A stretch of 64,000 nt of DNA from Folioceros fuciformis (Eukaryota), in assembly GCA_049999805.1 (NCBI GenBank), contig JBNGIO010006113.1:1-64000 (forward strand). Direction: 5' to 3'. Position 1 is the first letter of the stretch; each line of letters begins with the position of its first letter. The notes under the pieces are model-generated. The model saw only the letters and a program-made list of their open reading frames with translations. It ran no database searches and was not told where the DNA came from. Position numbers and translations under genes: made by a program. This document shows positions 2,868-64,000 of this stretch, piece after piece.

Positions 2868-2888
2868 ACCACTCTCCTATAAAGGTAA

Positions 2889-9965: not shown

Positions 9966-10160
9966 CCTCATTTTCTGGAAGCTGCTCCCTCCTCTTCGAC
10001 TGACCCTGCTAGCCCCTATGCTCCTGCAGAGTTACCAGATGCCCTGGACTCATATGTCTTCTTAGTTTATCCTCAGGATTCGCCCATTGCAGCTTCAGGG
10101 GGTGACCTTGATGAATATGCTCCTGTCGGAGTCGTTGAGGTTGATTCTACAGAACCAGCT

Positions 10161-20277: not shown

Positions 20278-20323
<46 letters not shown>

Positions 20324-20667
20324 CGCTATCGGTCTCTTGCTAGTATTTAGCCTTGGATGGAATTTACCACCCGCTTAGGGCTGCATTCCCAAACAGCCCG
20401 ACTCGCCGATAGCGCCTCGTGGAGCAACAGGGTCCAAGCTCGACGGGGCTCTCACCCTCTCTGACATCCCGTTCCAGGAGAACTTGGGCTCGGTCCGTTG
20501 CAGAGGACGCTTCTCCAGACTACAATTCGCACAGCAACACCGTGCAATTTTCAAGCTGGGCTATTTCTAGTTCGCTTGCCGTTACTAGGGAAATCCTGGT
20601 TAGTCTCTTTTCCTCCGCTTAGTGATATGCTTAAACTCAGCGGGTAGCCTTGCCTGATTTGAGGTCA
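19852..20667 (-). rRNA. 25S/28S rRNA 5' fragment (about 815 nt), dispersed non-functional copy
   Basis: Reverse complements of conserved LSU motifs: GATATGCTTAAACTCAGCGGGT, CTCTTTTCAAAGT, GGTACTTGTTCGCTATCGGT, GGTCCGTGTTTCAAGACGG; ends abruptly at GGGACC. Confidence 0.95.
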
Positions 20668-20960
20668 GATTGGATGCCAGACCGGCGCGATCACCGCGCC
20701 CACCTGATTCGAGTACCTTCGGGCCGGCGCATGAGGACGGCCGCGCAAACAGTTTCCGCCCAGTCGGGCGAAATCACCTTGGCCGCGGGGCCTCGCCACG
20801 CCCTGCCCAGACTCCCTGCATTTTAGCCGACCGGGACACCTCCCTCCTTCGCCTTCGCGCTTTGGGGGGCTCCCGGACAGCCAGCCATTCACTTCGCCGC
20901 ATCTTTTCCCCCACCCCTCCGCCGGAGCAGCGGGTGAGGGGACGGGCGTTTGCGAGCACA
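20668..20960 (-). other. ITS2 of the rDNA fragment
   Basis: GC-rich spacer between the 5.8S and LSU sequences. Confidence 0.85.
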
Positions 20961-21117
20961 CGATGCTCAGGCAGACATGCCCTTGGAACAAGTCCTCGGG
21001 CGCAACTTGCGTTCAAAGACTCGATGATTCGCGGAATTCTGCAATTCACACTACGTATCGCATTTCGCTGCGTTCTTCATCGTTGCAAGAGCCAAGATGT
21101 CCGTTGCTGAGAGTAAA
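20961..21117 (-). rRNA. 5.8S rRNA (dispersed copy)
   Basis: TTGCGTTCAAAGACTCGATG, ATTCTGCAATTCAC and CGCATTTCGCTGCGTTCTTCATCG on the + strand. Confidence 0.96.
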
Positions 21118-23330: not shown

Positions 23331-24790
23331 ATGGCCACAAGACAGTATTATGGCAAGTGGACCCCGTTTATGGACTCAACAAATTGAAATTGGTGCATTT
23401 GCAGTGATTGTTTGTACCAGGAGCTCCCGCTCACGTCATTGGAGGGAGTGAACCGGTGGCACACAATCTAGCTCCCAGCTGCAGCGGGATAAGGAATCCG
23501 TCAAGTCCAATTCCCAGAAAGTTTGTGGATGAGGAGGCGTTTCCAGCTGTGGTCGTCGCCAGGAGCAGGAGCAGTAGCAGCAGCATTTGCTGCACTTGCA
23601 CTTGCAGGAGCAGTTGCAACTTGGATATGAGTCAGCTGCGTACTTTGGGGACCATGGGTTGCGGAATGTATGCATCTAGAGGTGTGCCAGAGGAGGCCAT
23701 ATGGATGTGTTCACCAGGCTAGGCAAAGCACATGTTTCCCCATGCTCTTCCATCATCTCTGCATATGCTAAGCATGAGAAACCATGTTATGGAGGCCTTC
23801 CGATTGGACCATGACATGTGTAGGTGAGGAATAAAGGCGGATGCTCACGCCTTTGTAGCTGTCATTCACCTTTGAATGCGGTAGAAAAGTGCACGCTGAT
23901 GTCATGTGTTGGACACCGGAATTCCTCCTCCTCATTTGTTTGTTGGCAACTGCCTGGTGGACATGTATGCTAATTGTTGACAGCTGGGTATGCCCAGAAA
24001 GGCCTGGGACATGAGGCACTCGTTCTGTGTTGACTGGAGCTAGAAGGCTTGGTTCTGGCTGACGATGGTCACCTTACTTTTTGCAGGTCTGTGCACAAGC
24101 ACTGGTGCCTGGATATGAGGTGCTTGCTGTGTCCGGACAGATGTTGCAGGAGAGGAGAGCCTTCTTTTGGCTAACCGTGCGGCTCTTGCCTGCCTTGTGA
24201 GGGCCTGTGGAAGCACTGGTGCCTTGGAGGGGGGCAGGGAGCTGCACGCGATGATTGTGTCAGAAGAGTATTGTTGGATGATAGTGGTGGGCACCTCCGT
24301 GGGCGGCATTCGTGCAAAGTGTGTTGAACCGGAATGAATGATGCACGCCAGCGTTTCGACAGCTTGACCTGACCACAAAGGATGTGGCGATATGGAATGA
24401 CTTGATTTGTGGGTATGCAGGGCAAGGACTGAACCAAGAGGGGCCCCCTTATTGTGTGGGGACACATGGAGGAGTCGGGCTATATTCTGGCCGACCATGT
24501 TACCTTTCCTTGCCTTGTGAGGGCTTGTGGAAAGTATTCGTGCCTCACAGAAGGGCCAACTGCTGCACTCGCTGATAGTCGGAAAGTGACTGCTGGAAGA
24601 TGTAGTGGTGGGTAGCTGCCTGGTGGACGTGTACGCACAATCGTTACGCTGCGAACTAGAAGATGCACGCCTGCCAGGTTTTGAGGCTGCATGAACGCGA
24701 AGAATGTTGTGACATGTACCAGCAGCCCTGCCCTGATATGCTGGTATGGTTCTTGTGCTCAATGTCACAGGGCACTGCATACACATGTAG
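23331..24790 (+). pseudogene. Heavily decayed paralogue of the PPR cluster family (leader plus PPR remnants)
   Basis: DNA resembles the family leader (GGACCCCGTTTATGGACTCAACAA...GGAGCTCCCGCTCAC) and PPR motifs (GAGGCCATATGGATGTGTTCACCAGG, GGCAACTGCCTGGTGGACATGTATGC); no open frame. Confidence 0.75.
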
Positions 24791-31726: not shown

Positions 31727-32885
31727 CCCTCGTGCATTCCCTCGACTTTCAAATCGGCCGAGGTTCTGGTCCTGCCAGGCTGTCCTGTTGCAACTTGCGC
31801 CAGCAACGTATACACTCCTTCACACCCAAGACCCAGACCCAGACCCAGACAGCCGCCAGCCGCCAAGCTGTTTGTTGCTCGCAGCCACTTCATGTCAGCG
31901 TAAGGAATCCTCCACATATTACCACACGATGGACTGGACACTAGTTTACCCACTGCGTGCCTATGTACTGTCAGGAAACTATGGGCAGTGCTTTTGAATT
32001 GAAGAGATGTGCCTGAGGGCCGAGCTGGTGACTTCAGTCATCATCAGCCTCGATTGTCCGGATCCAGTGGCGACATGTTCTCCAGGGCTATCCATTCCAA
32101 TCGTTAATTTTGGGAAGGCTACCTGCACTTAATGGCAGCACTTGTTTTGAAGACGTGGAAGGACTATGAGATGGGGGCTCCTCACAATTGTGTAACCTTG
32201 CTCTTGGGCTTCTATGTGTGCGCCTATCAATCAGAGTCTGATCTCGTCATGATAGTGTCTAGGTGTGAGTTGTTTGTGGAGGATGGATGTGGTACTGGCT
32301 GTTGCTTGTGGGCCAGGCAGTTTCTAGGGGCACAAGCACCACTCTCACACCTTGGCATGCGGGTCACCAAATTGTCCGGATCCTCACCTTGCTCGTCTGC
32401 TGCGTACTCTATGCAGCGGACCCGGAGCAGTCCATCTGTGAGTCGGCTATTTGTCCGTTGTCGTTCCTGGTGTGTGTTTTCCTTGTACAGTATCTGACAG
32501 TAGAAATCCGCCAAGCTGCAAGTCAGCCACCGTCCCTGGGCTCGCTTCCTGAAAGAAAAGCTTATGGGTTTCGTATGTCATCAGCGTGCTGGGGGCCTGG
32601 CCACAGGACGACGACTCCAGCAGTTTTCGGCCTAACGTCCGGATCCTCCTGTGATGAGATCCAAGGAAGACTTGTGGACCTGTCTCTGCAGTTTTTCCTC
32701 CACAATTGCGAGGCGTTTCACAAATGAATGTAGGATTCGTTACCCTGTCCTCGGTCACGATTCACGAGTCGGCGGCATTCGGATCCTACATTTTCCTCTC
32801 TCCCAGTGCTGTGATGAGGCACTTGTGGTCTGGGCTCGCTTGCCACAATGTCGGTAGTTGCTGGGTGTGATCCCTCCCTCCATCG

Positions 32886-35800
32886 TTGTGTGGGACCTCG
32901 GGGAACCGGATGGTACTTCTGTTCGCACTCGACGACGGTTCGGTTCGCGTGGCATCGAGTTGGTCAGCGCCATGGCTGTCTGGCGAGCTGTTGCAACCGG
33001 CCAGTGGGGGGAACGAGCGCATCTTCCTGACTCTCAGGAACCAAGTTTTTGGGTGCAGATTTCTCTTCGCACACAAGCAGCCAGCTAGTGTGGATGTGCG
33101 GCGTGCTGCTCCGCATATGAGGGTGGGTGGTTCTGCTTCCCACAGAGGCTTACTGGTTGCTGCTGTCCTTGTGAGCCCCGCGCCACCAGATGATGGGCGT
33201 GTAACCCCGGACACCGTGAGCAAGCTGTGTGGTGAGGGAAATCTCGCTGGGGCTGTTGAGGGTTTGGGACTTCTGGTGCAGACAACAGAATGTCGCGTTT
33301 CCAAATTTCTTTTCTATGCTGTACTCAAGGAATGTGTGGTCAGCAAGGATCTTGCTGGAGGTCGTCGTGTGCATGCCCTGGCAGTGATGGAGGGGTACCA
33401 CTCGGACATGTTCGTGGCCAACCACATACTTCGAATGTATGCCTCTCTCGGCAGCTTGCAAGAGGCGATGGATGTGTTCACCGCGGTTCCCCAACCAGAT
33501 ACCTTTATCTGGTATTCCATCATTTCCGCCCATGTCAAACACGGGCTAAACAAGCAGGCCATAGAGCTGTATCATCGGATGCGCAGGTTGGGTATGAAGC
33601 CAGATGGTAGCCATGTGTTTGTGGCAGCCCTGCAGGCTTGCGCAAGGGGTTCAGACTTGCAAGCTGGCCAGCAGGTGCATGCTGATGTTGTGACCAGTGG
33701 AGTGGAGCTGGATTTGTTTGTCTGCACTTGCCTGGTGGACATGTACGCAAAGTGTGGCAGCTTGGAGGATGCTCGGGGCGTGTTCGACGGACTCGGTCGG
33801 AAGAATGTGGTGACGTGGAATGCCATCATAGCAGGGTATTCACAGCACGGCAGGGGGCAGGAAGCCCTCCGTCTGTACCGGGCTATGCAAGATGAGGGCA
33901 TCGTGGAGCCCAACGCGGTGACATTTTTGTGCCTTTTGCAGGCATGTACGAGTGTAGGAACCCCAGCTCTGGAGTACGGCAAGCAGCTTCATGCACAAAT
34001 CGAGGCACTAGGACATCAAGCTGATGCGTTTGTCGCCAGTAGTTTGGTGAACATGTATGCGAAGTGCGGCAGCTTGGGAGAGGCTTACCGAGTGTTTAAC
34101 GGACTTCGTACGAAAGATGTTGTGACATGGAATGCCATGATCGCAGGGTATTCTCAGCAGGGCATGGGGCAGGAAGCCCTTCAGCTGTACAGGGTCATGC
34201 AGGATGACGGTATTGTTGCGCCCAACGCTGTGACATTCGTGTGCCTCCTGCAGGCATGTGCAAGCGTTGGCAGCCCTGCTCTGAGAAACGGGAAGCAACT
34301 TCATGCTCAAATCAGAGAATGCGGACATGAGGCTGACGTGTTTGTAGCCAACAGTTTAGTAAACATGTATGCGAAGTGTGACAACTTGGAGGCTGCTCAG
34401 AGACTGTTTGATGACCTTAGTGAAAAAGATGTGGTGACATGGACTGCGATGATAGCTGGCTATTCCCAACAGGGCATGGGCCAGGAAGCCCTTCATCTCT
34501 ACAGGGCTATGCAAGCAGAAGGCATCGCTGTGCCTGATCCGGTCACATTTGTGTGCCTTGTCCAGGCATGTGCAAGTGTCGGCTCTGTGGCGCTAGAGAC
34601 AGGGAAGCAGCTCCACGAGCAGATTAAAGAGCATGGACACCAAGCTGATGTGTTTTTAGCTAGCAGTTTGGTCAACATGTACGCCAAGTGTGGCAGTTTG
34701 CAAGATGCTCAGGGTCTGTTTGAGGAAATTGATGAAAAAACCGTGGTCACATGGACTGCCATGATATCCGGATATTCCCAACAGGGAATGGGCCAGGAAG
34801 CCCTTCGTCTTTATGGCGCTATGCAAGAGGAAGGCATCACTGTGCCTGATTCGGTTACATTTGTGTGCCTCCTGAGGGCATGTGCTATCGTGGGGACTAC
34901 GGCTTTGGAGAAGGGGAGGCAGCTCCACGCACAAATTAGAGAACAAGGACTTCAAACTGATGTGTTTGTCGCCAATAGTTTGGTGAACATGTATGCGAAG
35001 TGTGCAAGCTTGGCGGATGCTCGGGGTGTGTTTGATGGACTTGGTCATAAAGACGTTGTAACATGGAATGCAATGATAGCAGCATATTCCCAGCAGGGCA
35101 TGGGCCAGGAAGCTCTTCGGCTGCACACTTCTATGCAACAAGAAGGCATCGTTGTGCCAGATTCTGTGACCTTGGTGACCCTCCTGCAGGCCTGTACAAG
35201 TGTTGGCACCACGTCACTGGAGAAAGGGAAGCAGCTTCATGCGCAAATACGTGAAGAAGGCCTTGAAACTAATGTGTTTGTTGCCAGCAGTCTGGTAAGT
35301 ATGTATGCAAAGTGTGGCAGCTTGGACGATGCGCAGAGTGTGTTTGATGGACTTGGTGAGAAAGATGTGGCGACGTGGAATGCCATGATAGCAGGATATT
35401 CGCAGCAGGGAATGGGTCAGGAAGCCCTTCGTCTGTACGGTTGTATGCGAGAAGGAGGAATGACATTGCCTGATCCCCTGACATTTTTGTGCCTCCTGCA
35501 GGCATGTGCAAATGTTGCAGCTCTGCATCTGGGAAGACAGTTGCATGCCCAGATTGTGGAACAAGGGTGTCAAGCTGATACGTTTGTGGCCAACAGCTTG
35601 GTAGACATGTATGCAAAGTGTGGCAGCATGGTTGATGCCCAGCAAGTGTTTGATGCTCTGTGCCGAAAGGATGTTCTGGCCTGGAACGCACTGATTGCAG
35701 GCTACACCTGTCAAGGAGACGGCGACTTGGTTTTTGACCTTGTCCATCAGATGGTAGAAGATGGCGTAATGCCAGACAGGGTCACGTTCCTTTGTGTACT

Positions 35801-36413
35801 GACAGTTTGCAGTCATGCAGGTCTGGTGAACAAAGGACAGGAATACTTTGCGGCCATGACTAGATGCTATGACATCACTCCCGCACTAGAACACTACACG
35901 TGCATGGTAGATCTCCTAGGTCGTACGGGCCAACTGGATGATGCCCTTGCATTAGTGTGCACTATGCCTGATCGGCCTAATTCTGTGGTTTGGCACACTC
36001 TTCTAGGTGCTTGCCAAAAGTGGGGCAACCTGGAGATGGGACGGCATGCTTTTGAAGAAGCTGTGAAGCTAGACGAGCAAGATTCCGCAGCATTTGTATT
36101 GATGTCAAACATATACACAAGTGCTCAGATGGTGCAGCAGGCGGAGGAGCTGCAGGCCAGGAGAACTAAGATCAGGGCATTGAAGCAGCCAGGCCAAAGC
36201 TGGTGGGCAGACACAGAAGGATTTGTGCACAGTTTTGTAGTTTATCATTCCAAACAAGTAAGGCCGAGACAGGTCCTCCCCAATATGGCAAGTGAAGCAC
36301 TACCAGCAAGTATGTTGGACGGCATTGTGGGCAGGAAGAGCACTTTCGTGGTCAGCAGCAACAACTTTGCCATGGCGAACTTCTCACAAAACAACAGACG
36401 AGCGCAAATGTAA
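32886..36413 (+). CDS. PLS-class PPR protein with E1-E2 and a truncated WW-type DYW start, no deaminase core (start may be the ATG at 33117)
   Basis: Seven MYAKC-containing PLS units; P2-L2-S2 (CSHAGLV, EHYTCMVDLLGR); KQPGQSWWADTEGFVHSFVV; no HxE or CxxC follows. Confidence 0.9.
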   Translation: MCGTSGNRMVLLFALDDGSVRVASSWSAPWLSGELLQPASGGNERIFLTLRNQVFGCRFLFAHKQPASVDVRRAAPHMRVGGSASHRGLLVAAVLVSPAPPDDGRVTPDTVSKLCGEGNLAGAVEGLGLLVQTTECRVSKFLFYAVLKECVVSKDLAGGRRVHALAVMEGYHSDMFVANHILRMYASLGSLQEAMDVFTAVPQPDTFIWYSIISAHVKHGLNKQAIELYHRMRRLGMKPDGSHVFVAALQACARGSDLQAGQQVHADVVTSGVELDLFVCTCLVDMYAKCGSLEDARGVFDGLGRKNVVTWNAIIAGYSQHGRGQEALRLYRAMQDEGIVEPNAVTFLCLLQACTSVGTPALEYGKQLHAQIEALGHQADAFVASSLVNMYAKCGSLGEAYRVFNGLRTKDVVTWNAMIAGYSQQGMGQEALQLYRVMQDDGIVAPNAVTFVCLLQACASVGSPALRNGKQLHAQIRECGHEADVFVANSLVNMYAKCDNLEAAQRLFDDLSEKDVVTWTAMIAGYSQQGMGQEALHLYRAMQAEGIAVPDPVTFVCLVQACASVGSVALETGKQLHEQIKEHGHQADVFLASSLVNMYAKCGSLQDAQGLFEEIDEKTVVTWTAMISGYSQQGMGQEALRLYGAMQEEGITVPDSVTFVCLLRACAIVGTTALEKGRQLHAQIREQGLQTDVFVANSLVNMYAKCASLADARGVFDGLGHKDVVTWNAMIAAYSQQGMGQEALRLHTSMQQEGIVVPDSVTLVTLLQACTSVGTTSLEKGKQLHAQIREEGLETNVFVASSLVSMYAKCGSLDDAQSVFDGLGEKDVATWNAMIAGYSQQGMGQEALRLYGCMREGGMTLPDPLTFLCLLQACANVAALHLGRQLHAQIVEQGCQADTFVANSLVDMYAKCGSMVDAQQVFDALCRKDVLAWNALIAGYTCQGDGDLVFDLVHQMVEDGVMPDRVTFLCVLTVCSHAGLVNKGQEYFAAMTRCYDITPALEHYTCMVDLLGRTGQLDDALALVCTMPDRPNSVVWHTLLGACQKWGNLEMGRHAFEEAVKLDEQDSAAFVLMSNIYTSAQMVQQAEELQARRTKIRALKQPGQSWWADTEGFVHSFVVYHSKQVRPRQVLPNMASEALPASMLDGIVGRKSTFVVSSNNFAMANFSQNNRRAQM

Positions 36414-36940: not shown

Positions 36941-39900
36941 TCACGGCCGTCCATCGCAACTGCAGCAGATTGATGTACAAGGTAGCTATCCCTTACAAAA
37001 GCGCCCCTTTCAACCCTGGACTTCGTATCTGTGGCTGTCACCGCACATGCGTAGATCTTGGTTACCATTAAAGGTGTGCAACTCCGAGCGTTCAAGAGAC
37101 CAAACAGCAGAGCTAGCTTCTCTGAGCACGCCCGCAAAGCACATCTCTTCCTTTCTCTTCTCACCACATGGCTTCAACACCAACTTAGTGTCAGGCACAT
37201 GGCCCCCTTCCTGCTTCAGACGCGTACTCATACTCTCCGCCTTAAGCCGGGTTTCCCCCACCACAAATCTATGTACCTGCTGCTTCACCTCAATGGTCCA
37301 CACGGCAGGTTTCTTGTTGGCTCCAACTACCATTCTCTGCGCTTTAGTTTTCTCTACATCGTTGCACCTACCTGCATCTGCATGGGCATTGGCCATAAGC
37401 ACGTGTGGCGATGGACTGTGAGGTTCCAGTCTCACCAGACTTTCAAAGCAACCTGTCGCCTCTCTGCATCCCCGGCACTTGCAGGAACTCAGCAAAGACG
37501 TCCAACCCCACAATATTGATAGTAGCATATTCTCCGCCTCATCTAAATGGTCAGCACGACCAAGAAGATCAATCATGCAACTGTGACGCTCAATAGTAGG
37601 TCTCATGCCATGATCAGCCATGGAGTTGAAGTGCTTGAAGTCCTCATGCTCCGGCTCCTCATGACTGCATGCTGCCAAGAAGCCAGTAAAGGTAGTACCG
37701 GCGGCAAACATGTTTCGAAAACAAGCTCTTGCCTTGTGACCTTCATCACGAGTACAACACCCAGCCATCAATGCATCCCATTTTACCAAATTTTTGGTGG
37801 ACACGCTGTCAAAAATTTGGCGTGCACCTTCCAGCTGGCCACATTTTGCATATAAGTCCGCCAAGCAGGTTCCCAACACTACAACATCCAACAGTCCGCC
37901 ATCGACAATCTGAGAGCGCAGTTGCCTGCCCCTCTGTAAGGGACCCGTGGGTGCACAGGCCTTCAGAAGGCAAGCCAAAGCAACAAGGTCCGCAAAAACG
38001 AGGCCTTCTTGCTCCATTGGCCCACACAGAACAAGCGAGTCTTGGCTGAGTCCTTGTTCTACATATCCAACTATCAGGACGTTCCATGTCACCACATCCT
38101 TTGTGTCCATACTGTCAAAACCTGGCATGCATCGTCCAGTTGACCACATTTTGCATGAGGTCCACCAGGCAGTTGCCTAACCCTACATTATCGAGCAGTC
38201 CCCTTCCCACAATCTGTGAGTGCAGCTGCATGCCCTGCCATAAGGCACCCGTGCTTGCACAGGGTTTCAGAAGGAAGCAAACGTAACATGGTCAGCCAAA
38301 ACTAGGCCATCTTACTCCATTTGCTCATACAGCAGAAGCGCAACCTGGGCCGAGCCCTTGCTTTGCATAACCAGATAACACTGCATTCCATGTCACCACA
38401 TCCTTCGTGGGCAAGCGCTCAAATACTTCTCGGGCACATCCCCAGTCACCAAATTTCGCACACATGTCCACTAGGCAGTTACCAACCAGTAAGCTATCTA
38501 GCAGCCCTCGTTCAACGAGCTGTGAGTGCAGATGCCTGTCCTTCTGTAAAGCACCTGTGACTGCACAGGCTTTCAGAAGGCAAGCAAAAGTAAAATGGTC
38601 AGCCACAATTAGACCCTCCTGCTCCATCCGTTCATACACAACAAGGGCCTCTTGGCCGAGCCCTTGCTGTGCATACTCACCAATGATTGTCGTCCATGTC
38701 ACCACGTCCTTGTGGTCAATATTTCTAAAACCCCTCGTGCACATTCCAGTTCACCACACTTTGCATACATGTCTACCAGACAGTTGCCTAAGAGTGTCAT
38801 CGAGCTGCCCTCGTTTCACAATCTGTGAGTGCAGGTGCCCTCCCTTCTGTAAGGCACCAGGACTCGCACAGGTTTTGAGAAGGCAAGCAAAAGTAACTCG
38901 GTCACCCACAACCAGGCCCTCCTGCTCCATTCGCTCGAAAACAAGAAGCGCCTCTTGCCCGAGCCCTTGCTGTACGTACCCACCAATCAGCGCAGTCCAT
39001 GTTACCACATCCTTTGTGGCTAAGCTTTCAAAAACCTGGCGTGCATCTCCCAGTGCTTTACACTTCACATACATCTCAACAAGGCAGTTTCCGATGAACA
39101 AGTCAGGAGGAATGCCACTATCCAGGAAATCTCCGTGCACTTCCCTTCCTGATTCCAAGCCGGCAGCAAATGCACAAGCTTGAAGGGCAGCTACAAAGAT
39201 GTGGCCATCCGCCTTCACTCCTGATCTTCGCATTTCATGGTCCAGTTGTATGGCCTCGTTAGGCCTCCCCTGTTTAGCATGTGAAGAGATTACGGAAACC
39301 AGCATGAAGACATAAGGTGTCCCTGGTGGACACATCCATGGCCGCCTGCAGCCTACCTCCAGATACATACATGCGCAAGATATGACCCCAAATATGGATC
39401 CGACTCGTAGCCAAGTTCGACAACAAGGTCATGAACTCGTTGCCCCATAACCAGATCCTTCTTCGGTGTACACATTTTGGTACAGCATAAAGGAGAGACT
39501 GAGAAACGGCGGAGTCTGTCACAAAATCTCTGTTTTCTCCCACCACAAGCTTTCAGGAGGCAAGCAAAAATAACACGATCAGCCAAAATGAGGCCCTCTT
39601 TCTCCATTACCCATACAAGTCAAGTGCCTCTCCAGCGCGTCCGTGCCGTACACACCCATCAATCAGGGCCGTCCAGGTCACCACATCCTTTGCGGCCAAG
39701 TTGTCAAAGGCCTGGCGTGCGTCTTCCAATTCGCCACATTTGGCATACATGTCAATCAGGCAGTTTCCCACAAACAAGTATGGAGGAATGCCACCCTGCA
39801 AAACATCAGTGTACTTGCCTGCCAGATTCCAGGTCGACGGCAAATGCACAAGCCTGAAGGGCAGCTGCAAAGACATGACAATCCGCCTTCACCCCTGACT

Positions 39901-40760
39901 TCCGCATCTCATGATACAGTTCTATGGCCTCATTACGTTTGCCTTGCTTGGCGTAGGCGGAGATTATGGAAAACCACATGAAGACATTTGGTTTGTCCAC
40001 CCTGATGAACACATCCATGGCCTCCTGCAGCCTACCTCCATATGCATACATGCGCAAGATCTGGTTCCCCAAATACGTATCCGACTCGTACCCAAGTTTG
40101 ACAGCGAGATCATGAACTCTTCCCAGCAACCAGATCCTTCTTAGCTGCACACAGTTTGAGCACATTGAAAAACAGAGACTGAGAAATGGCAGGCTCTTTC
40201 TCCGCCAGAGACTCCAGGGATCCAACGGCTTCAGAGACCTTCTCCTGCTGACACAGCGTGGTCACGGCCACAGCAGATCCGAGGACCATTTCCGATCCTG
40301 CATGCCTACCAGGTCCAGGCCTATCCGGAGAGCTGGACTTGTAAGGAGAGGGATCATGACTCATCCGCACATCTAACTCCACGAGATGCTCGTCAACCCA
40401 AGCTGGCTGGCTTGAGTACGCTGTTTAACCACAGGACCTCCCTGGACCCCTTACGCCGGAAGTCAGGCGAGCGGGGAGAATTGTTTGAATCCAGGAAGAA
40501 TTGTTGCCACAATTGCTCTTGCTCCTGGCGACGATCATCACTAGAAAACGCGTCCCCGCCCAGGCATTTTTCAGGAGGCGAAAGTGCTGGGCTCTCCACT
40601 CTGGTGCACCTGGAGACCTGGTTGTTCGACAGAGGAGGGCTCCCTAAGGTGAGGCGATCGGGAGCTCTTGGTAGAATCTCTGCACACCCACCGCCTTTCT
40701 GGGTCCACAAAGGATCCGCTTGCCCTGGAATGAGCATGTTGCAGGGACCGCTGTCGAGAG
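36941..40760 (-). pseudogene. Decayed PDF-PLS-PPR-DYW:KP(GRP) pseudogene with an internally duplicated N-terminal PPR block
   Basis: Fragments LWQQFFLDS...PDFRRKGSREVLWLNS and KKPAVWTIEV; CSCDGRP* ends at 36941; many frameshifts; a second KKDLVMGQRVHDL start near 39500. Confidence 0.9.
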
Positions 40761-41049
40761 ACGAGGAGCACAGCAAACTACAGCAGGTTGGCGATGGCCG
40801 GGTATGGTGCATTGCCCACCCGTGTGCAGCCTGCACAACACAGGTGAAAGGAGAGCCAGCTTGGAGCCCACCCACAACATCGAGGTTGAGCACATTGACT
40901 TGGAGTGGCTCAGTTCATGCGCCTGCAACGCATTGACAGGGTGCTTAGGGCCCAGTTACGTGTATACAACTAAGAGCTAAGGGGCCTCCATTTGACCTTG
41001 CTTGCATCAGGGCTGGCCAGACTTGCTTACAATTTTTAGCTTGCCAACT

Positions 41050-42300
41050 AGGGAGAGTGCTATCATCAGGTTGATCACCAGAAGCAATCATCTCTTCGAA
41101 ACAAGCTACTGCTCTGTGACCTTTATCACCAGTACCATAACCAGCGAGCTATAAGGGCATTCCGTGTCACCACATTCTTTGAAGCCAAAGATGTCAAGAA
41201 CCTGGCGCGCAACTTCCACTTCGCCACATTTTGCATACATGTCCACCAGGAATGCTCCCAGCACCACGTTGTCCAGCAATCTGCTTTCAACATTCGGCAA
41301 GTGAGCTGCCTGCCCTTCTGTAAGGCTCCAATGCTACCACAGGCCTTCAGAGGGCAAGCAAAAGTAACATGGTTAGCCATCATCAGGCCATCTTGCTCCA
41401 TCTCTCCATACAGAAGAAGCGAACCTCTTAGCCAAGCCCTCGGTGAGCGTACCCTGCTCACAGTGAATTCCATGTCACCGCATCCTTTGTGGCCAAGATG
41501 TCAATAACCTGGCGTGCATCATCCAGCTCGCCACAATTTGCATTTTCGCCACATTCATGCTTCGCAAAAGCAGAGATTATGGAGAACCACATGAAGGCAT
41601 CTGGTTTGGCTACCCTCGTGAACACATTTATGGCCTCTCGCCGCCTACCTACAGATGCATACATGCGCAAGATATGATCTCCCAAGTATGCATCCGCCTC
41701 GTACCCAAGTTGGACAGCGAGATCATGAACTCGTCGCCCCATAACTAGGTCTTTCTTAGCTGCACACAGCTTCAGCACCGTGCAAAACAGAGAGTGGGAA
41801 ACATGAGAGTCTGTCTGCACCATAGAATCCAGTCCTCGAACGGCCTCAAAAAGCTTCCCCTGCTGACACAACGTGCGCACGGCTGCGGGCGTTACGACTG
41901 ATCCTGCAAGCTTGCGAGGTTGAGGGTCATCTGGAGAGCTCGGCTTGGAAAAAGATGTACCGTGACCCATCTCCAAATCTAACGACACGAGTTGCTCATC
42001 AAACCCAAGCTGTTAAACCACAGGGCCTCGTTGGATCCCTTACGACGGAAGTCAAGCGCACGAGAGCTCTTCTTATCTCGCCTGTTGTCCCAGCATATGG
42101 TAGGCTGCAAGTTCTCGCTGCACACTCCGTCTCGACCCACAAATTTGCTGGGCGTTGGGAGTGCAGGGCTCCTTACACTGCTACACCTGGAGGACTTAAT
42201 GCTTGCCAGTACGTGACAGCTTGAGGCGACATAGGAGGGGGCTCCCCGTAGAATCCCTGCTGGAGACAGACCTTTCTGTTGGGTCCACGACGGGTCCGAT
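41050..42300 (-). pseudogene. Internally deleted paralogue of the PDF-PPR family
   Basis: CWDNRRDKKSSRALDFRRKGSNEALWFNS remnant, LCQQGKLFEAV, PPR fragments; no DYW remnant seen. Confidence 0.85.
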
Positions 42301-51785: not shown

Positions 51786-54700
51786 TCACGGTCGACCCTC
51801 ACAACTGCAACTACCAGCTACAAATCGATGCACACGGTAAGCATCCCTTACAACGATATGTCGACTTTCGACCCTCGACATGATCTCGGTGGAACTGTGG
51901 CAGTCACTGCACATGCGCAGGTTCTTAGTTACCAGCAGAGGTGTACCACTCGGAGTGTTCAAGAGACCAAAAGCCAGAGCCAGCTTTTCAGCATGCCCAC
52001 ACAGCACATCTTCCTTTTCCTTCTCACACAAAGGCTTTAACACCACCTTCGTCTGGGGCACATGGCCCCTTTCCTTTAAGCTGCCTAACTTGAGTGCCAT
52101 GTCATCTCTTCTCTCTCCCACTGCAAACCTATGTACCTGCTTCTTCACCTCAACCGTCGCTACTGCAGGTTTCTTGTGAGCTCCAGCTACAGTCCTCTGT
52201 GTTTCTATCCTGTCAACATCGGTCCATCTACCTGCATCTGCATAAGCGTTGGCCATGAGCACATAGGCAGATGCACTCTGAGGCTCCAGTCTCAACAGAC
52301 TTTCAAAACAACGCCTCGCCCTGTCTACATCCCCGTGAAGTTTGCAAGCATTCAGCAACGACGTCAATCCCACCACATTGCTTTCACTCTCGCATGACAA
52401 CAGCAGGTTCTCGGCCTCATCTAAATGGCCTGCACGCCCAAGAAGATCTATCATGCCAGTGTAATGCTCCATGGTAGGTTCGACGCCATGCTCTTCAGCC
52501 ATGGAACCAAAATGCTTGCGACCCTCATGCACCAGCCCCTCATGACTGCAGGCTGCTAGGAGGCAAGTAAAAGTAGTTTTATCGGGCTGGATACCAGCGA
52601 CTAGCATCTCTTCGAAACACGCCACTGCCTTACGACCTTCATCACAAATACCGCAGCCGGCTATGAGAGAATTCCATGTCACTACGTTCTTTGTGGCCAA
52701 GCTATCAAACACCTGGCGTGCAACTGCCAACTCACCACATTTTGCATACATGTCCACCAGGCTGCTGCCCAGCACTACGTTATCCAGCAGTCCTCTTTCC
52801 ACCAGTCGTGTGTGCACCTCCCTGCCCTTCTGCAAGGCACCACTGCTTGCACAGGCTCTTAGTAGCCAAGCAAACGTGACATGGTTAGCCAAAACCAGGC
52901 CATCTTGCTCCATCTCGCCATACAGAACAAACGCCTCTTGGCCGAGCCCTTGCTGTGCATACCCGCCTATGAGGGAATTCCATGTCACTTCATCTTTTAA
53001 GGCCAAGCCGTCAAAAACCTGGCGTGCATCTCCCAGTTCGCCACATTTTGTGTACATATCCACCAGGCAGTTGCCCAACCATGTGTCGAACTGCCCTCTT
53101 TCTACAATCAGGGAATGTAGCTGCCTCCCCTGCTGTAGAGCATGAGTGCTTGCACAGGCATTCAAAAGGCAAGCAAAGGTAACATGGTCGGCAAAAATGA
53201 GGTCCTCTTGCTCCATTTGTCCGTACAGAACAAGAGCCTCCTGTCCAAGTCCTTGTTCTGCATATCCAGCGATCAGGGCATTCCATGTCACCACATCCTT
53301 TGTGGTCAGGCTGTGAAAAACTTGGTGTGCATCTTTCAAGTTGCCACATTTTGAATACATGTCCACCAGGCAGTTGCTCAACCATAAGTCACCTAGGAGT
53401 CCCCTTTCTACAATCTGTACGTGCAGGTGCCTGCCCATGTGTAAGGCACCAGTACTTGCACAGGCTTTCAAAAGACAGGCAAACGTAACAGGATTGGCCA
53501 CGATCAGGCCGTCCAGCTCCATCTGCTTAAACAGTGCAAGCGCCTCATTCACAAGCCCTTGCTGGGCATACCCAGCAATCAGTACAGTCCACGTCACAAC
53601 ATCCTTTGTGGCCAAGCTTGCAAAGACCTGGCGTGCTTCTTCCAGTTCACCACATTTTGCATACATGTCCACCAGGCAATTGCCCAACACTATGTCCCCC
53701 AGCCGGACGCCTCTTTCAACCATCTGTAAATGCAGCTGCCTGCCTTTCTGTACGGCACGCGCGCTGGCACAGGCCGTTAAAAGGGAAGCGAAAGTAACAT
53801 CGTTGGGCACAACAAGGCCCTCTTGCTCCATACGTCCAAACAAAACAAGCGCCTCTTCGCCAAGCCCTTCTCGTGCATACCCAGCTATCAGGACATTCCA
53901 TGTCACCACGTCCTTTGTGGCCAAGCTGTCAAAAACCTGGCGGGCATCTTTCAGTTGGCCACATTTTGCATACATGTCCACCAGGCAGTTGCCCAACACT
54001 TTTTTCTCTAACAGTCCTCGTTCCACAATCTGTGAGTGCAGCTGCCTGCCCTTCAGTAACGCCCCAGCGCTTGCACACGCATTCAGAAGGCAAGCAAATG
54101 TAACATGGTCAGCCAAATGTAGGCCCTCTTGCTCCATTTGTGCGTACAAAACAAGCGCCTCTTGGCCAAGCCCATGCTGTGTATACCCAGTTAACATTGC
54201 ATTCCAAGTCACGACATCCTTTGTGACCAAGATGTCGAAGGCCTGGCGAGCATCTTTGAGTTCTCCACATTTTGCATACATGTTCACCAGGGAGTTGCCA
54301 ACAAATAAGTCAAGGGGAATGCCACTGTGCAACACGTCACAATGCACTTTTCTCCCAGATTCCAGGTCACCGCCAAATGCACAAGCTTGAAGGGCAGCTA
54401 CAAAGACGTGAGCATCCGCCTTCACTCCTGCCCTGCGCATCTCATGATACAGCTGTATGGCATCATTAGGTTTACCATGCTTAGCATATGCAGAAATTAT
54501 GGAAAACCACATGAAGACATTCGGTTTCCCCACTCTGGTGAACACATCCATAGCCTCCTCCAGCCTTCCTCCACATGCATACATACGCAAGATATGGTTC
54601 CCCAAGTAGGCATCCGACTCGTACCCAAGTTTGACAACGAGGTCATGAACTCGTCGACCCACAACCAGGTCCTTTTGAGCTGAACACAGTTTCAGCACGA

Positions 54701-55292
54701 TGAAAAACAGAGACTGAGAAATAGGAGAATCCGTCTGTGCCAGGGATTCCAGGGCTCCAACTGCCTCACACAGCCTCCCCTGCTGACATAAAATGCGGAC
54801 GGTTACGACGCCCGCCTCGGATCCTGCACGGGTGCAAGGTTCAGGATTATCCGGAGAGTTTGACTGGGAAGGAGAGGCTCCATGACCCGTCTGCTTATCC
54901 AAAGAAAAAAGCTGCTCGTCAACCCAAGCTGGTTTGAGCATGCTGTTCAACCACAGGACCTCGCCGGACCCCTGAAGCCGGAAGTCTGGCAAATGGGAGC
55001 TCTTCTTATCTCGTCTATTGTCCCACCACGTTGTAGGCTTCAGAAAAAATTGGTGCCACGAGTGCTCCTGCTCCTGACGACGATCAGAACGGGAAAATCC
55101 AAACGCATCCTCACATTTTCTCAAAAGTAGAAGTGCTGGGCTCCGTACAAAACTGCTCCTGGAGACTTGGTTGCTTGCTGCAGGCTGACTCCCTAAGATG
55201 AGATGGGCAGGAGCTCCTTGTAGAATCCCTGTAACAGCATTACTCTGTCGGGCACACAGAGGGTCCGGTTGTAATACTGCGGCCATGTTCAA
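51786..55292 (-). CDS. PDF-motif + PLS-PPR + DYW:KP (GRP-type) protein, longest paralogue
   Basis: PDF motif 54909-55061; six MY(A/S/T)KCG units; KKPAVATVEV, HAEKLA, CSDCH, CSCEGRP*. Confidence 0.95.
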   Translation of the reverse strand: MNMAAVLQPDPLCARQSNAVTGILQGAPAHLILGSQPAASNQVSRSSFVRSPALLLLRKCEDAFGFSRSDRRQEQEHSWHQFFLKPTTWWDNRRDKKSSHLPDFRLQGSGEVLWLNSMLKPAWVDEQLFSLDKQTGHGASPSQSNSPDNPEPCTRAGSEAGVVTVRILCQQGRLCEAVGALESLAQTDSPISQSLFFIVLKLCSAQKDLVVGRRVHDLVVKLGYESDAYLGNHILRMYACGGRLEEAMDVFTRVGKPNVFMWFSIISAYAKHGKPNDAIQLYHEMRRAGVKADAHVFVAALQACAFGGDLESGRKVHCDVLHSGIPLDLFVGNSLVNMYAKCGELKDARQAFDILVTKDVVTWNAMLTGYTQHGLGQEALVLYAQMEQEGLHLADHVTFACLLNACASAGALLKGRQLHSQIVERGLLEKKVLGNCLVDMYAKCGQLKDARQVFDSLATKDVVTWNVLIAGYAREGLGEEALVLFGRMEQEGLVVPNDVTFASLLTACASARAVQKGRQLHLQMVERGVRLGDIVLGNCLVDMYAKCGELEEARQVFASLATKDVVTWTVLIAGYAQQGLVNEALALFKQMELDGLIVANPVTFACLLKACASTGALHMGRHLHVQIVERGLLGDLWLSNCLVDMYSKCGNLKDAHQVFHSLTTKDVVTWNALIAGYAEQGLGQEALVLYGQMEQEDLIFADHVTFACLLNACASTHALQQGRQLHSLIVERGQFDTWLGNCLVDMYTKCGELGDARQVFDGLALKDEVTWNSLIGGYAQQGLGQEAFVLYGEMEQDGLVLANHVTFAWLLRACASSGALQKGREVHTRLVERGLLDNVVLGSSLVDMYAKCGELAVARQVFDSLATKNVVTWNSLIAGCGICDEGRKAVACFEEMLVAGIQPDKTTFTCLLAACSHEGLVHEGRKHFGSMAEEHGVEPTMEHYTGMIDLLGRAGHLDEAENLLLSCESESNVVGLTSLLNACKLHGDVDRARRCFESLLRLEPQSASAYVLMANAYADAGRWTDVDRIETQRTVAGAHKKPAVATVEVKKQVHRFAVGERRDDMALKLGSLKERGHVPQTKVVLKPLCEKEKEDVLCGHAEKLALAFGLLNTPSGTPLLVTKNLRMCSDCHSSTEIMSRVESRHIVVRDAYRVHRFVAGSCSCEGRP

Positions 55293-55892
55293 GGACCTGT
55301 GCCTGACGTCAGGATGCGTGAGACCCCTGCTGTCCGGTTTGTTACCCCACCAGTCTAAGAGATCCTGGAAAAAGAGATGCCACAGCTGTTCCTGTCACTC
55401 TTTTTCTATTCCGTCGAGAGGCTTGGCCGCCTCCCACTTGGACAAGTGCGGGAGCGCAGAGCCAAGATGTGGCTGAAGAGCCACAAATTTTGCCACGAAA
55501 CAGCCCTGCCTGCATCATTGCCATGGCAGCCCTGATTTGGTTGCCTCCCTGGACTTGAAGGGCAGGCAAGGCAGGCACCTGATTAACGGTCCACATGTCT
55601 GTTGAACCGCTCGGTGCCAACACGTGCATGACCAAGGCCCCATCCCATTTGCATTTCACCAATTCTGTAAAGTGGCGACTCCAATCGAGAACGCGTAAGC
55701 ACCCACCGAGACACGGGTGGACAAACGACCCGTAGGAATTAGGGTTTAAGGCAATGGTGGCATCTACCAGGCAACCACCTTTGTTTTGGTGGGATTTTGC
55801 GAGCAACTGTCTTCCCGGGTGGTTTAATCATGCATGCCGACAGGAGTAGCTATAGTTTGTTGTGTCCTTGTTCCGACAGGGGTCCCTGAACG

Positions 55893-58499
55893 ATGGCCAC
55901 TACTCGGCCACCGGACCCTTCGTGGACTCAGCAACTCGCTGTGTCAACGGGGATTCTACGAGGAGGAGTTCCCGCTCACCTCACCTCAGCGAGTGAACCC
56001 GTGGCAAACACCAAAGCCTTCAGGTGCAGCAGTGTACCAAGCCCAGAATTTTCACTTTCGGGAAAATGTTTGGGTGGGGAGGGATTCTCCTGGGATGGTG
56101 CTCGCCGGGTGCAGGAGCACTTGTGGCAACAGTTTTTTCTGGATCCTACCAGGTGGTGGGACAACAGACAAGATAAGAAGAGCCCGGGTGTGCCGGACTT
56201 CCGGCGTAAGGGGTCCAGTGAGGTCCTGTGGTTAAACAGTTTGCTCAAGCCAGCCTGGGTTGATGAGCAACTGGTGTCTTTGAAGTTGCAGATGGCTCAT
56301 AGTGCGTGTCCTTCCAGTGCCAGCTCTGTGGACAATCCTAAACGTGGCATGCGTGAAGGATCGGAAATGGACGTCGTAACTCCTGTCAGCGTGCGCACAT
56401 TATGTCAGCAGGGGAAGCTTTCTGAGGCCGTTGGAGCGCTGGAATCTCTGGCACAATCAGACTCTGCCATCTCGCAGACTCTGTTTTACACTGTGCTAAA
56501 ACTGTGCACAGCTAAGAAGGATCTGGTTGTGGGGCGACGAGTTCATGACCTCACTGTCAAACTTGGGTACGAGTCGGATGCATACTTGGGAAACCATCTC
56601 TTGCGCATGTATGCATCACGAGGTAGGCTGCAGGAGGCCATGGATGTGTTCACCAGGGTAGGCAAACCAAATGCCTTCATGTGGTTTTCCATAATCTCTG
56701 CATATGCTAAGCATGGGAAACCTAATGTGGCCATACAACTGTACCATGCGATGCGTAGATCAGGAGAGAAACCGGATGATTACGTCTTCGTAGCTGCCCT
56801 TCAAGCTTGTGCATTCGCCGCCGACTTGGAGTCTGGGAGAAAGGTGCACTCTGATGTTCTGCACAGTGGAATTTCTCCTGGTTTGTTTGTTGGAAACTGC
56901 CTGGTGGACATGTATGCCAAATGTGGCGATCTGGAAGATGCACGGAGGGCCTTTGAAAGCTTGGCCAGGAAGGATGTCGTGACATGGACGGCCCTGATTG
57001 CTGGTTATGCACAGCAGGGGCTCGGCCAAGAGGCCCTTGTTCTTTATGGGCAAATGGAGCAACAGGGCGTCGTCGCTAACGATGTAACTTTCGCTTGCCT
57101 TCTGAATGCCTGTGCAAGCGCCGGTGCTTTACAGAAGGGCAGGCAGCTGCACTCACAGATTGTTGAAAGAGGACTGCTGGACAACGTAGTGTTGGGCAAC
57201 TGCCTGGTGGACATGTATGCAAAATGTGGCGAGCTGGCAGTTGCACGCCAAGTTTTTGACAACTTGGCTACAAAGAATGTGGTGACATGGAATGCACTGT
57301 TGGCTGGGTATGCACAGCAAGGGCTCGGCCAAGAGGCACTTATTCTGTATGGTCAAATGGAACAGGAGGGCCTCATTTTTGCTGACCGTGTCACTTTTGC
57401 CTGCCTGCTGAAGTCCTGTGCAAGCACTGGTGCCTTACAGACAGGTAAGCAGTTGCACTCAGACATTGTGGAAAGAGGACTGCTGCATGACATTGTGTTA
57501 GGAACTTCCCTTGTGGACATGTATGCAAAATGTGGCGAACTGGATGCTGCGCGCCGGGTTTTTGATAGCTTGCCCAGGAAGGATGTGGTGACATGGACGG
57601 CTCTAATATCTGGGTATGGTGTTTGTGACCAAGGGTACAACGCAGTAGCTTGTTTTCAGGAGATGTTGGTCGCTGGTATCCAACCTAATGATGCGACGTT
57701 TCTTTCCCTGTTAGTAGCATGCAGTCACGAGGGACTGGTGCACGAGGGTCGCAAGCACTTTGCATCCATGACTGAGCAACATGGCATCAGACCTACATCT
57801 GATCATTACAATTGCATGATTGATCTTCTGGGGCGTGCAGGCCATTTAGATGAGGCTGAGAGCATGCTCTTATCATGCGAGTGCGGAAGCAACGTTGGGG
57901 GACTGACGTGTTTGCTGAATGCGTGCAAGAGTCACGGGGATATAGAGAGGGCGATACGGTGTTTTGACAGCATTGTTAGACTGGACCCTCAGTGGGCGTC
58001 TGCATATGTGCTCATGGCCAATGTCTACGCGGATGCAGGTAGGTGGACCGATGTACAGAGGATTGAAACACAGCGGCTGGCAGCAGGAGCCAGCAAGAAA
58101 CCTGCTGTGGCGGGCATTGAGGTGAAGCAGGAAGTACATACATTTGTGGTGGGCGAACACAGAGCTGACATTGCTCTCGTTTTGGACAGTGTGAGTGCTC
58201 GTCTGAAGCAAGAAGGGGGCCACGTACCTCACACGAAGTTGGTGTTGAAACCAGTGGGTGAGAAGGAAAAGGAAGATGCGCTTTGTGGGCATGCTGAGAA
58301 GCTTGCTCTGGCGTTCGGTCTCCTGAACACTCCGAAGGGCACTCCCCTGATGATAACCAAGAATCTACGCATGTGCAGTGATTGCCACAGTTCCACTGAG
58401 ATCATGTCAAGGGTCGAAAACAGAGATATTGTAGTAAGGGATGGATATCGTGTGCATCGATTCTGGGCTGGTTGTTGCAGCTGTCAGGGTCGGCCCTGA
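55893..58499 (+). CDS. PDF-motif + PLS-PPR + DYW:KP (GRP-type) protein, shortest paralogue
   Basis: PDF motif 56121-56273; three MYAKCG units; KKPAVAGIEV, HAEKLA, CSDCH, CSCQGRP*. Confidence 0.95.
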   Translation: MATTRPPDPSWTQQLAVSTGILRGGVPAHLTSASEPVANTKAFRCSSVPSPEFSLSGKCLGGEGFSWDGARRVQEHLWQQFFLDPTRWWDNRQDKKSPGVPDFRRKGSSEVLWLNSLLKPAWVDEQLVSLKLQMAHSACPSSASSVDNPKRGMREGSEMDVVTPVSVRTLCQQGKLSEAVGALESLAQSDSAISQTLFYTVLKLCTAKKDLVVGRRVHDLTVKLGYESDAYLGNHLLRMYASRGRLQEAMDVFTRVGKPNAFMWFSIISAYAKHGKPNVAIQLYHAMRRSGEKPDDYVFVAALQACAFAADLESGRKVHSDVLHSGISPGLFVGNCLVDMYAKCGDLEDARRAFESLARKDVVTWTALIAGYAQQGLGQEALVLYGQMEQQGVVANDVTFACLLNACASAGALQKGRQLHSQIVERGLLDNVVLGNCLVDMYAKCGELAVARQVFDNLATKNVVTWNALLAGYAQQGLGQEALILYGQMEQEGLIFADRVTFACLLKSCASTGALQTGKQLHSDIVERGLLHDIVLGTSLVDMYAKCGELDAARRVFDSLPRKDVVTWTALISGYGVCDQGYNAVACFQEMLVAGIQPNDATFLSLLVACSHEGLVHEGRKHFASMTEQHGIRPTSDHYNCMIDLLGRAGHLDEAESMLLSCECGSNVGGLTCLLNACKSHGDIERAIRCFDSIVRLDPQWASAYVLMANVYADAGRWTDVQRIETQRLAAGASKKPAVAGIEVKQEVHTFVVGEHRADIALVLDSVSARLKQEGGHVPHTKLVLKPVGEKEKEDALCGHAEKLALAFGLLNTPKGTPLMITKNLRMCSDCHSSTEIMSRVENRDIVVRDGYRVHRFWAGCCSCQGRP

Positions 58500-62066: not shown

Positions 62067-64000
62067 TGTTAGAGATTCAATCCTCTAGTATATTAGGATA
62101 TACTTAGGATATTGCACTCTCGAGTCTAGGGCTTACCTTCTCCATAATTGCCTAGCTTAAGGGCTATATATGTAGCACCCTATGCACCATATTGCCTTGT
62201 ATTGTTGAGCCTATCTAAGCCAGTGGTGCTATTGCGTGTGCCATCCATAGCCTCTGCTTGTGTCTACTAATTGCATCCATAGCCTCTGCTTGTGTCTGCT
62301 AATTGTGTTGATCCTATCCGTTGCCCAGGCTGTGTTGTGTCTGAGCTGTTTCTTTCATGGTATCATAGCAGGAACACTAATCGTGAGACTTGATAAGAGA
62401 GGATGGAGTTGTGATGGCGATGGACTTAATAACCACCGCGGCCTTGAGGACACGGGTGTTTGATGGAAAGGAGTTTCATGTATGGAAAAGGTCCGTGAAG
62501 GTTTTGCTGATGGCAAAGGATGTGTATGTCATTGCTAAGGGCAAAGAGCCAAAACCCTAAGATGAGGGGAGAGAGTAAAGAGAATGGATGCAGAGAGACC
62601 ACTAGGGTACAGCTCTCCTATATATGAATCTCTCTACGATAGTCCAGCTGAAGGTCGGAGAACCAGACAAGGGCACGGAGTACATTTGGAATCTTCTCGA
62701 TTAGAAATATGGCTAGAAGGGAGTAGGTGAAGTATTTCACTTGTTTTGTCGTGTGACAAAATTGAAGTATTCAGACGGAGGCGATTTGCGAAAGCACATC
62801 GACATCTTTCACGAATTTTTTACAGCGCTAACATCAGCTAGCGAGCGCTTTGCTATCCATGAGGACATACAGAAGATGTTTCTATATCGTTCTATGCCCA
62901 AAGCTTGGTCAGGGTTCATAGATTTCCTAATAGCCCAAAACACTCTCACATGGGAGGAGGTCACCTCTAAGATGTTGGTGAAGGAGACTTGCCAATTGGA
63001 CACAATGGCAAGATTTTCAATAGGTCCGGAGCATGCGATGTTCATCAAGGGGAAGGGATGGAACAACCGGAACAAGGACAAGCAGGGGGAGTCCTCGCAG
63101 GGACAGAAGGACAAGAGAATAGTGAAGAGGGGACAATGCCGGAAATGCTTCAAGTATAGTCATTATGAGAAGGATTGCAAGGATCGGAAGACCGCACATC
63201 TCATGGAGGGTGAGAGTAAAGGTGAGGTTGTAGAGGCAAGGCTCGCAAAAGAAGTATCGCACGTGTGCTACAATACACAAGCGAAATGATACCTGACGAT
63301 AGATTCTGCATGTGCATCCTTTATGGTGAAGGATAAGGAGCTCCTTCAAGACTAAAGGGGGGAGAAGATAGCGGTGCACCTAGGGAACGATAGTGAGATA
63401 AGCGTCGAAGGTGTGGGGGGATACAGGCTCAGATTGCTGGACGGCGAGGTCAAGGCAATGGAAGGAGCGCTGTTTGTACAACACCTACGTAGAAATCTCA
63501 TGTCCATGGCACCATGGACCGATGGAGGTTTGAAAGTCCTTTTTACGAAGAAGGAAGTTTTGTTTCTGAAGACTGGTCAGATGCACGGCGATGTGGTGGC
63601 AAAAGGTTACTGTACAGGGAACTTGTAACAGATGGAGGTTTTGACAGTGTCGGAGAAAGGTGGAAATGCCTTACTGTGGCATAGATGATTTGGGCATACC
63701 AACTTGAAGTTTCTCCTAGAGATGGAGCGGAAGAAGCTTGTGACAAGAATGAAGCTTCAAAAGGCAGAACTTGGTCTGTGTGACGCTTGTATGAGAGGCA
63801 AGCATTCCCGAAGATCTTATATTTCAATCACGAAGAGAGGAAAAGAAGTCTTGGAACTTGTCCACTCTAATCTTTGCGGACCGATGCAAGTGGAAGCAAG
63901 GATGATACATGCAAGATACTATATTTTGTTTATCAATGACTACAGCAGAGAACAGCGGTGTACTTCCTGCGGACGAAGAGTGACGCTCTCCAAACATTTC
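62067..64000 (+). mobile_element. Ty1/copia retrotransposon E, degenerate, running off the window; 5' LTR 62067-62357
   Basis: TG...CA LTR; PBS TGGTATCATAGC at 62358-62369; gag with CRKCFKYSHYEKDC; decayed protease and integrase (LELVHSNLCGPM); many stops. Confidence 0.88.

Follow-up and report, generated by a model that had tools for sequence, protein, structure and literature searches.

The window, by which we mean the whole 64,000-nt stretch of Folioceros fuciformis DNA that was analysed, carries a series of intronless PLS-PPR-E-DYW genes arranged in tandem; HAE is present in their DYW domains, which terminate in GRP. Two genes, A and B, are situated head to head on either side of the stretch with which we are chiefly concerned (Table 1). 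Gene A has Pfam matches to PF01535, PF20431 and PF14432, representing the PLS-PPR array, the E motif and the DYW domain, respectively, and its active site (GHAEKLA), MCSDC motif and C-terminus (GRP followed by the stop codon) are as given for the GRP subgroup in the available text of PMC9478123. Based on these features, gene A is a candidate for U-to-C editing of the DYW:KP class.

Table 1. Features of the head-to-head gene pair and of the stretch between the two genes.
Feature	Positions	Strand	Basis
Gene A: intronless PDF-PLS-PPR-E-DYW:KP (GRP type), QPDP clade, 1166 aa	51786..55286	-	ATG 55286
Gene A DYW domain, KP class, HAE, CxxC, ends GRP	51789..52067	-	PF14432, E 3.8e-32
Gene A intact PDF, 80-92 bits, positions 3-54 of 55	54906..55061	-	genome PDF profile
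Last 11 nt of QPDP-clade 5' flank	55287..55297	-	flank alignment, 29 loci
Truncated, decayed PDF (profile positions 1-32), L002-like; the motif of the earlier note	55298..55394	-	alignment, profile
TGA in frame, replacing Arg codon (CGG) of L002	55395..55397	-	L002 alignment
Decayed transit-peptide-coding region, same L002-like paralogue	55398..55584	-	L002 alignment
Short intergenic stretch, remnant to gene B (head to head)	55585..55892	.	ORF arrangement
Gene B: divergent QPDP-clade PDF-PPR-DYW:KP (GRP), PDF at 56115-56276	55893..58499	+	ORFs, Pfam, profile

Elsewhere in the window, several disrupted genes of the QPDP clade are found on the two strands (37010-42109; truncated PDFs lie at 40518-40396 and 42107-42009), and a plus-strand PLS-PPR-E gene has neither a PDF nor a DYW match (32871-36413). 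Off the array, weak matches to QPDP leader DNA were found at about 23300-23570 (E 2e-7), perhaps an isolated fragment. The sequence at about 19800-21100 is rDNA-like, judging from a visual inspection of ORF text and GC content, and is broken by retroelement-like ORFs, and Copia-like ORFs lie at 1-12500 and 62700-63300.

The minus-strand frame of gene A is open from 55394 to 51786 (1202 aa, first residues QEQLWHLFFQDLLDWWGNKPDSRGLTHPDVRHR) and is directly preceded by an in-frame TGA, just as an earlier note on this DNA had described. While the long frame is real, the position taken there as its apparent start, 55292, is a TTG and the actual ATG is at 55286; there is no in-frame ATG between the TGA and this position. 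The same note had read the upstream peptide as a degenerate full PDF, the motif known from OSB proteins. On a 55-position profile made from 27 PDFs of the genome, from which this locus, its best match and L018 were left out, a score of 41.9 bits, well above chance, was obtained for the first 33 residues, which have the N-terminal PDF pattern (W..FF..P..WWDNR, PDF), but the match extends only over positions 1-32 or 35. The C-terminal part of the motif (LWL..P.WV..L) is absent from the fragment: residues 34-52, the MAT..QPDPLWTQQ sequence that had been considered the tail of the PDF, score -1.5 bits on the profile, and for the genes at 42847 and 55893 the in-frame leader scores are -2.0 and -2.9 bits. 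Since the fragment matches positions 1-32 and its tail does not score, the motif represents about 60% of a PDF. Neither the fragment nor the QPDP leader matched any Pfam family, Pfam having no PDF model, and in a search of the genome with the fragment all 150 scored candidates matched, all except four at E<0.07.

The best genomic match of the fragment (69% aa) is locus L002, a PPR-DYW:KP gene from a different subfamily that has one PDF, HAE and an end in DRC. By blastn, the DNA from 55584 to 55298 is 72% identical to L002 over 308 nt (E 5e-40), the transit-peptide part being covered; the other loci align to the PDF-coding part alone. The alignment of the non-PDF part to L002 scores 184.5, whereas 200 shuffles reach 78 at most and the other 28 loci do not exceed 84. 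Within the fragment itself, 79 of 96 nt and 23 of 32 aa are identical to L002, whereas the alignment to the genome's own OSB gene, which had been suggested as a check, gave 49 of 96 nt and 11 of 32 aa; for the PDFs of the QPDP clade the identity is 48-59 of 96 nt (54 of 96 for gene A's own PDF). The region is decayed, as nine of 33 residues are changed compared to L002, including four in conserved columns (P, R and F, all invariant, and a near-invariant D), the position of the L002 ATG is occupied by GTG (55578), and the distance from there to the PDF is 184 nt vs. 204 nt in L002, which puts the two out of frame. The TGCAG that had been offered as a candidate splice acceptor near 55510 does exist, at 55514-55510, but the sequence before it is purine-rich and it aligns to a coding TGCAA of L002; moreover, because it lies upstream of the in-frame TGA, no exon spliced to it can enter the PDF frame.

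A phylogeny of the PDFs had also been suggested. In both free trees (L018 omitted; L020 and L053, a single gene, represented once) the fragment groups as sister with the PDF of L002, with support of 93/90 for protein and 99/97 for DNA, but AU tests did not reject a clade of the fragment and OSB (p 0.19 for protein, 55 aa columns; p 0.65 for DNA, 99 nt columns), and in the DNA test the constrained tree scored above the free tree. As these PDF alignments are short, the trees alone decide nothing and the L002 origin rests on the flank. With 72% identity, L002 is a relative and not the parent copy. A DNA search of the genome with the remnant returned the remnant itself and one PDF-only match; since even L002 was missed, this search is insensitive. 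Among the loci examined, the upstream fragment is found at this locus alone.

In the earlier note the fragment was instead explained as the eroded first PDF of an OSB gene with several PDFs, the 3' part of which had been fused to a PPR-DYW:KP gene, with MAT..QPDPLW as its tail. The fragment is indeed a PDF, the frame is open over the junction, the short alignments in the AU tests allow a grouping with OSB, and OSB proteins with several PDFs are established (PMC6963530 and PMC13393729, available text). We nevertheless consider this origin very unlikely, based on the lack of a PDF score for the proposed tail, the closer match to L002, the L002-type PPR transit-peptide sequence, without an OB-fold, in the upstream DNA, and the fact that the fragment is missing from the other paralogues examined. 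Likewise, the SSB profile had three matches in the genome, at two loci, and the one OSB detected consists of an OB-fold (PF00436) and a single intron-split PDF; its OB-fold, used as a query, found only itself (1/1 candidate, a lower bound). The window has no match to PF00436, and none to the OSB OB-fold either upstream of the fragment or elsewhere in it. In the available part of PMC13393729 (Table S1), the OSBs of Anthoceros punctatus and Marchantia have one PDF each and that of Selaginella has two.

The similarity to L002 stops at 55298 and that to the QPDP clade begins at 55297-55296, which marks this point as a chimeric junction. The frame is open across it owing to the displacement of a single base: the TGA in the flank of gene A (55291-55289) is one base nearer to the ATG than in most paralogues and is therefore out of frame. 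With high confidence we interpret the motif as a pseudogenic remnant at a chimeric junction, at which the decayed 5' end of an L002-like gene is joined to a gene of the QPDP clade. In the history that we propose, the minus strand would once have carried a single-PDF PPR-DYW:KP gene resembling L002, in head-to-head arrangement with gene B, until a deletion or ectopic recombination severed this gene within the PDF (about 55298/55297) and fused its 5' end to the last 11 nt of the QPDP 5' flank of gene A. The remnant would then have decayed through loss of its start codon, a frameshift and a stop. Gene A presumably starts at 55286 as its paralogues do, and may use the captured promoter, while the fragment is most likely untranslated and the open frame through the junction would be incidental. 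Gene A is of QPDP type over its whole body (its first PPRs are identical to those of the window paralogues at 124-136 of about 165 aa, and to those of L002 at 74 of 162) and no L002-like remainder lies downstream, which fits deletion or ectopic recombination. The overlap of 3-4 nt at the joint fits microhomology, although it is too short to count.

Two other histories were considered and rejected. An insertion of gene A into an L002-like gene does not agree with the absence of a 3' PDF half and of L002 similarity below 51786 (scores of 69.5 and 75.5, shuffle maximum 87); the match of the 3' flank to L002 (126.5) is due to overlap with neighbouring coding DNA, and the true intergenic stretch scores 70 vs. 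a shuffle maximum of 104.5. A segmental duplication of the head-to-head pair of L002 found no support, as the intergenic score is 43.5 and the shuffle mean 44.

The region could also be read as functional, if a non-AUG start or an unseen intron extended gene A by a partial PDF, or if the stretch served as a regulatory 5' leader with upstream ORFs. There are 36 open codons above the ATG, and five out-of-frame upstream ATGs open an ORF ending at 55342, short of the main ATG. A comparable arrangement is seen at L043, where a second decayed and frameshifted non-QPDP PDF, unrelated to the remnant in the window, lies on the same strand 300-150 nt above the ATG of a QPDP gene; captures of non-QPDP PDFs above QPDP genes may thus recur. 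However, the fragment has lost conserved PDF residues and the AGs that follow the TGA have no pyrimidine tract. An N-terminal extension displaces an N-terminal targeting peptide, and any extension of gene A would shift its own. A functional role for the junction is thus improbable in our estimation.

An assembly mis-join of two paralogues would also explain the junction, given that the assembly is fragmented (7240 contigs) and the family highly repetitive. We regard this as extremely unlikely, as the remnant is decayed, no near-identical second copy was found in the (insensitive) DNA search, and a 530-nt contig from run X1 covers 55116-55645 without difference. Run X1 covers 30 of 30 bins, intergenic bins included, and may be DNA; if, as may be the case, the assembly was built from this run, its contig is not independent support.

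Chimeric or promoter-capturing duplicates occur in tandem gene arrays. The pseudogenic remnant at 55298..55394 resembles them in that the 5' end of one paralogue is placed on the body of another and then decays, and nothing at this junction is different in kind. The stretch flagged in the earlier note reflects ordinary turnover of a tandem array, and there is no evidence in it for an OSB ancestor with tandem PDFs.

Weak similarity to the 5' flank of L002 extends into the intergenic stretch to about 55751. The minus strand at 55747-55739 reads AAACCCTAA, which we take to be a telo-box-like motif, and there is a near match to it in the L002 flank. The intergenic stretch is likely to be a shared promoter. 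Head-to-head PDF-PPR pairs, 0.6-2 kb apart, are frequent (window 55298-55893; G000:C6164:107180/109246; C5800:133354/134305; C5367:7947/8644), suggesting that head-to-head PDF-PPR genes share promoters. Inside one head-to-head PPR pair there is a tRNA-Leu-like sequence, noticed by eye (L085, G000:C6164, about 108770-108850).

To examine the leader of the QPDP clade, we searched the genome with it, and all 150 scored places, of 246 candidates, matched. Thirty of these at least 150 QPDP loci were read; one of them (L040) has no ATG and was left out of the ATG counts. The other 29 start with an ATG after a conserved flank, and an in-frame stop lies above this ATG within 35 codons in 27 of the 29 and within three codons in 16. 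By the profile, no PDF is in frame and contiguous upstream of the ATG in any of the 30 loci. The QPDP leader has weak out-of-frame matches to the PDF profile. At the DNA level, the leader consensus is identical to the clade's PDF at 58 of 91 columns (score 60, maximum of 1000 shuffles 50.5), and leader and flank together at 99 of 174 (67 vs. 48.5, but with looser gap costs only 83 vs. 81). With nhmmer (E<=0.1), 18 of the 30 leaders match a model of the clade's PDF and four match that of other subfamilies, while gene A's own leader has no match to the clade model. On average the leaders score 37.6 against QPDP PDFs, 28.7 against other KP PDFs and 22 against the PDFs of OSB and intron-bearing genes, with about 20 for shuffles and the control. 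In our view the QPDP leader probably goes back to an internal duplication of the PDF region in this clade, in which the ATG would mark the head of the copy and the frame would shift after VWQ. The idea that the start Met lies in an eroded PDF thus seems to be correct, with the difference that this Met would be at the head of the copy, out of frame, and that the copy would come from the clade's own PDF and not from OSB. Four QPDP genes have tandem PDFs (intact in L013, L035 and L056, broken in L052), and both copies are QPDP-type in each, with means of 113-139 of 165 nt identical to the clade vs. 72-99 to OSB, which indicates that tandem copies arise within the family.

The relationship of the family to OSB can be considered separately from the origin of the fragment. 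The PDF profile of the family matches both exons of the genome's OSB PDF, and a query with the OSB PDF exon matched all 150 scored places, of 286 candidates. Seven of 12 fetched loci have intron-split PDFs, namely the OSB and six others, the latter comprising four PDF-PPR-E/E+ genes, one double-PDF gene with a disrupted PPR frame, and one with a PDF and a DYW domain. In all eight split PDFs (the OSB and seven in the six loci) the predicted GT-AG intron is in phase 0, is 76-123 nt long and interrupts the motif at an identical codon. OSB proteins are thus like the PDF-PPR proteins in having the PDF motif of about 50 aa, and their intron position is common to the genome's intron-bearing PDF-PPR genes, but they have an OB-fold with the PDF C-terminal to it, whereas PDF-PPR proteins have no OB-fold and a PDF that is N-terminal to the PPR array (PMC6963530 and PMC13393729, available text). 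At L069/L080 (G000:C6232:175214-175707, plus strand) two tandem intron-split PDFs precede a PPR region with a broken frame.

In a search of 1.84 billion proteins, the PDF profile had 1069 matches (E<=0.001), and among the best 150 of these nine contain PPRs, 40 are also found with the OSB OB-fold query and 101 belong to neither group. Seven of the nine PPR-bearing proteins among these 150 are from Adiantum (two), Pteridium (two), Diphasiastrum (two) and Sphagnum (one); the Sphagnum protein has a complete DYW domain with HSE that ends in DYW, and three of the nine carry two or three PDFs among the matches listed. Seven of the library proteins (P0001-P0005, P0009 and P0016) have 6-13 PDF repeats, most of them with no OB-fold or PPR match.

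The occurrence of PDF-PPR proteins in a moss, a lycophyte and ferns indicates that the fusion extends beyond the KP class and is probably older than this class. The earlier note's proposal of a family derived from an OSB fusion is supported in part and in altered form: profile matches and the common intron identify the PDF as the OSB module, but the DYW:KP fusion was probably not the founding event, because the PDF is also present on E/E+ and DYW:PG-type proteins of other seedless plants. Based on the common intron and the spread, we propose, as the simplest reading, that the OSB module was joined to PLS-PPR genes by exon shuffling in early land plants and that intronless retrocopies then expanded as hornwort-type KP families; both the direction of the fusion and its single origin are presumed here. 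Loss of introns by retroposition has been described for hornwort PPR genes in general (PMC13386178, available text). Multi-PDF PPR genes occur among intron-bearing or non-hornwort members (L069; P0006, P0035 and P0094), and these make a multi-PDF ancestor possible for the PDF-PPR fusion as a whole.

No description of a PDF-PPR fusion was found in the open literature, in which a search for "PDF motif" with "pentatricopeptide" gave only a review of OSB and fusion phrases gave nothing; subscription surveys and bioRxiv supplements were outside its scope and may hold one. Gerke 2020 and Gutmann 2020 are the primary surveys of hornwort PPR proteins. Similar hallmark-domain fusions, RRM-PPR and RRM-DYW, also have an accessory nucleic-acid-binding domain on a PPR or DYW protein, but there are only a handful of these, according to the available text of PMC13386178, compared to the hundreds of PDF loci here. 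The terms "PDF", "OSB" and "SSB" occur zero times in the main text of that paper.

The PDF of AtOSB1 is sufficient for ssDNA binding (PMC6963530, available text). Our PDF alignment has 13 invariant columns among 26 copies (which were picked by similarity) in otherwise divergent leaders, and this conservation suggests selection. The domain model of the PDF has a pLDDT of 89; compared to the PDB, the fold had no Foldseek match at E<=0.001 and a best VIA Z of 2.6, and the sequence had a best E of 0.057 (CP29, chance level). A search for homologous proteins with one PDF as the query gave four candidates, none significant, and the best ESM Atlas score for the PDF, 0.86, provides leads only. Among possible roles of the intact PDF we favour, at about even odds, a sequence-independent grip on single-stranded nucleic acid next to the PPR array, which would help editing.

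An editosome without MORF partners has been proposed for the hornwort-type lineage. The genes here are like the hornwort PPR-DYW:KP GRP subgroup in their PLS-PPR array, E motifs, DYW domain with HAE and CxxC, and GRP end, but they also carry an N-terminal PDF, which is unmentioned for this subgroup in the available text of PMC9478123; the designer proteins of that study consist of PLS triplets and C-terminal domains, and those of the GRP type achieved about 22-26% U-to-C editing. Natural U-to-C candidates thus carry an N-terminal module that is absent from Pfam models and from designer KP editors. If the PDF raises activity or specificity, this would bear on natural reverse editing and on the design of base editors, and would link organelle DNA-maintenance proteins to RNA editing. 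More tentatively, and less likely than not in our estimation, these genes may be overlooked editing factors of seedless plants that have an OSB PDF ahead of the PPR array, hundreds of them U-to-C candidates in this genome. The PDF could be a built-in accessory that either grips or unfolds the RNA or ties the editor to nucleoid ssDNA or R-loops so that editing takes place during transcription, and in one large subclade the targeting peptide would derive from a frameshifted PDF duplicate. At one locus (L076, G000:C2365:3021, plus strand) an intron-split PDF is followed by an acidic/lysine-rich linker and then by a DYW domain with HSE and a DYW end, the frame containing no PPR, and the product of this locus is, from its architecture, a possible trans-acting PDF-DYW deaminase.
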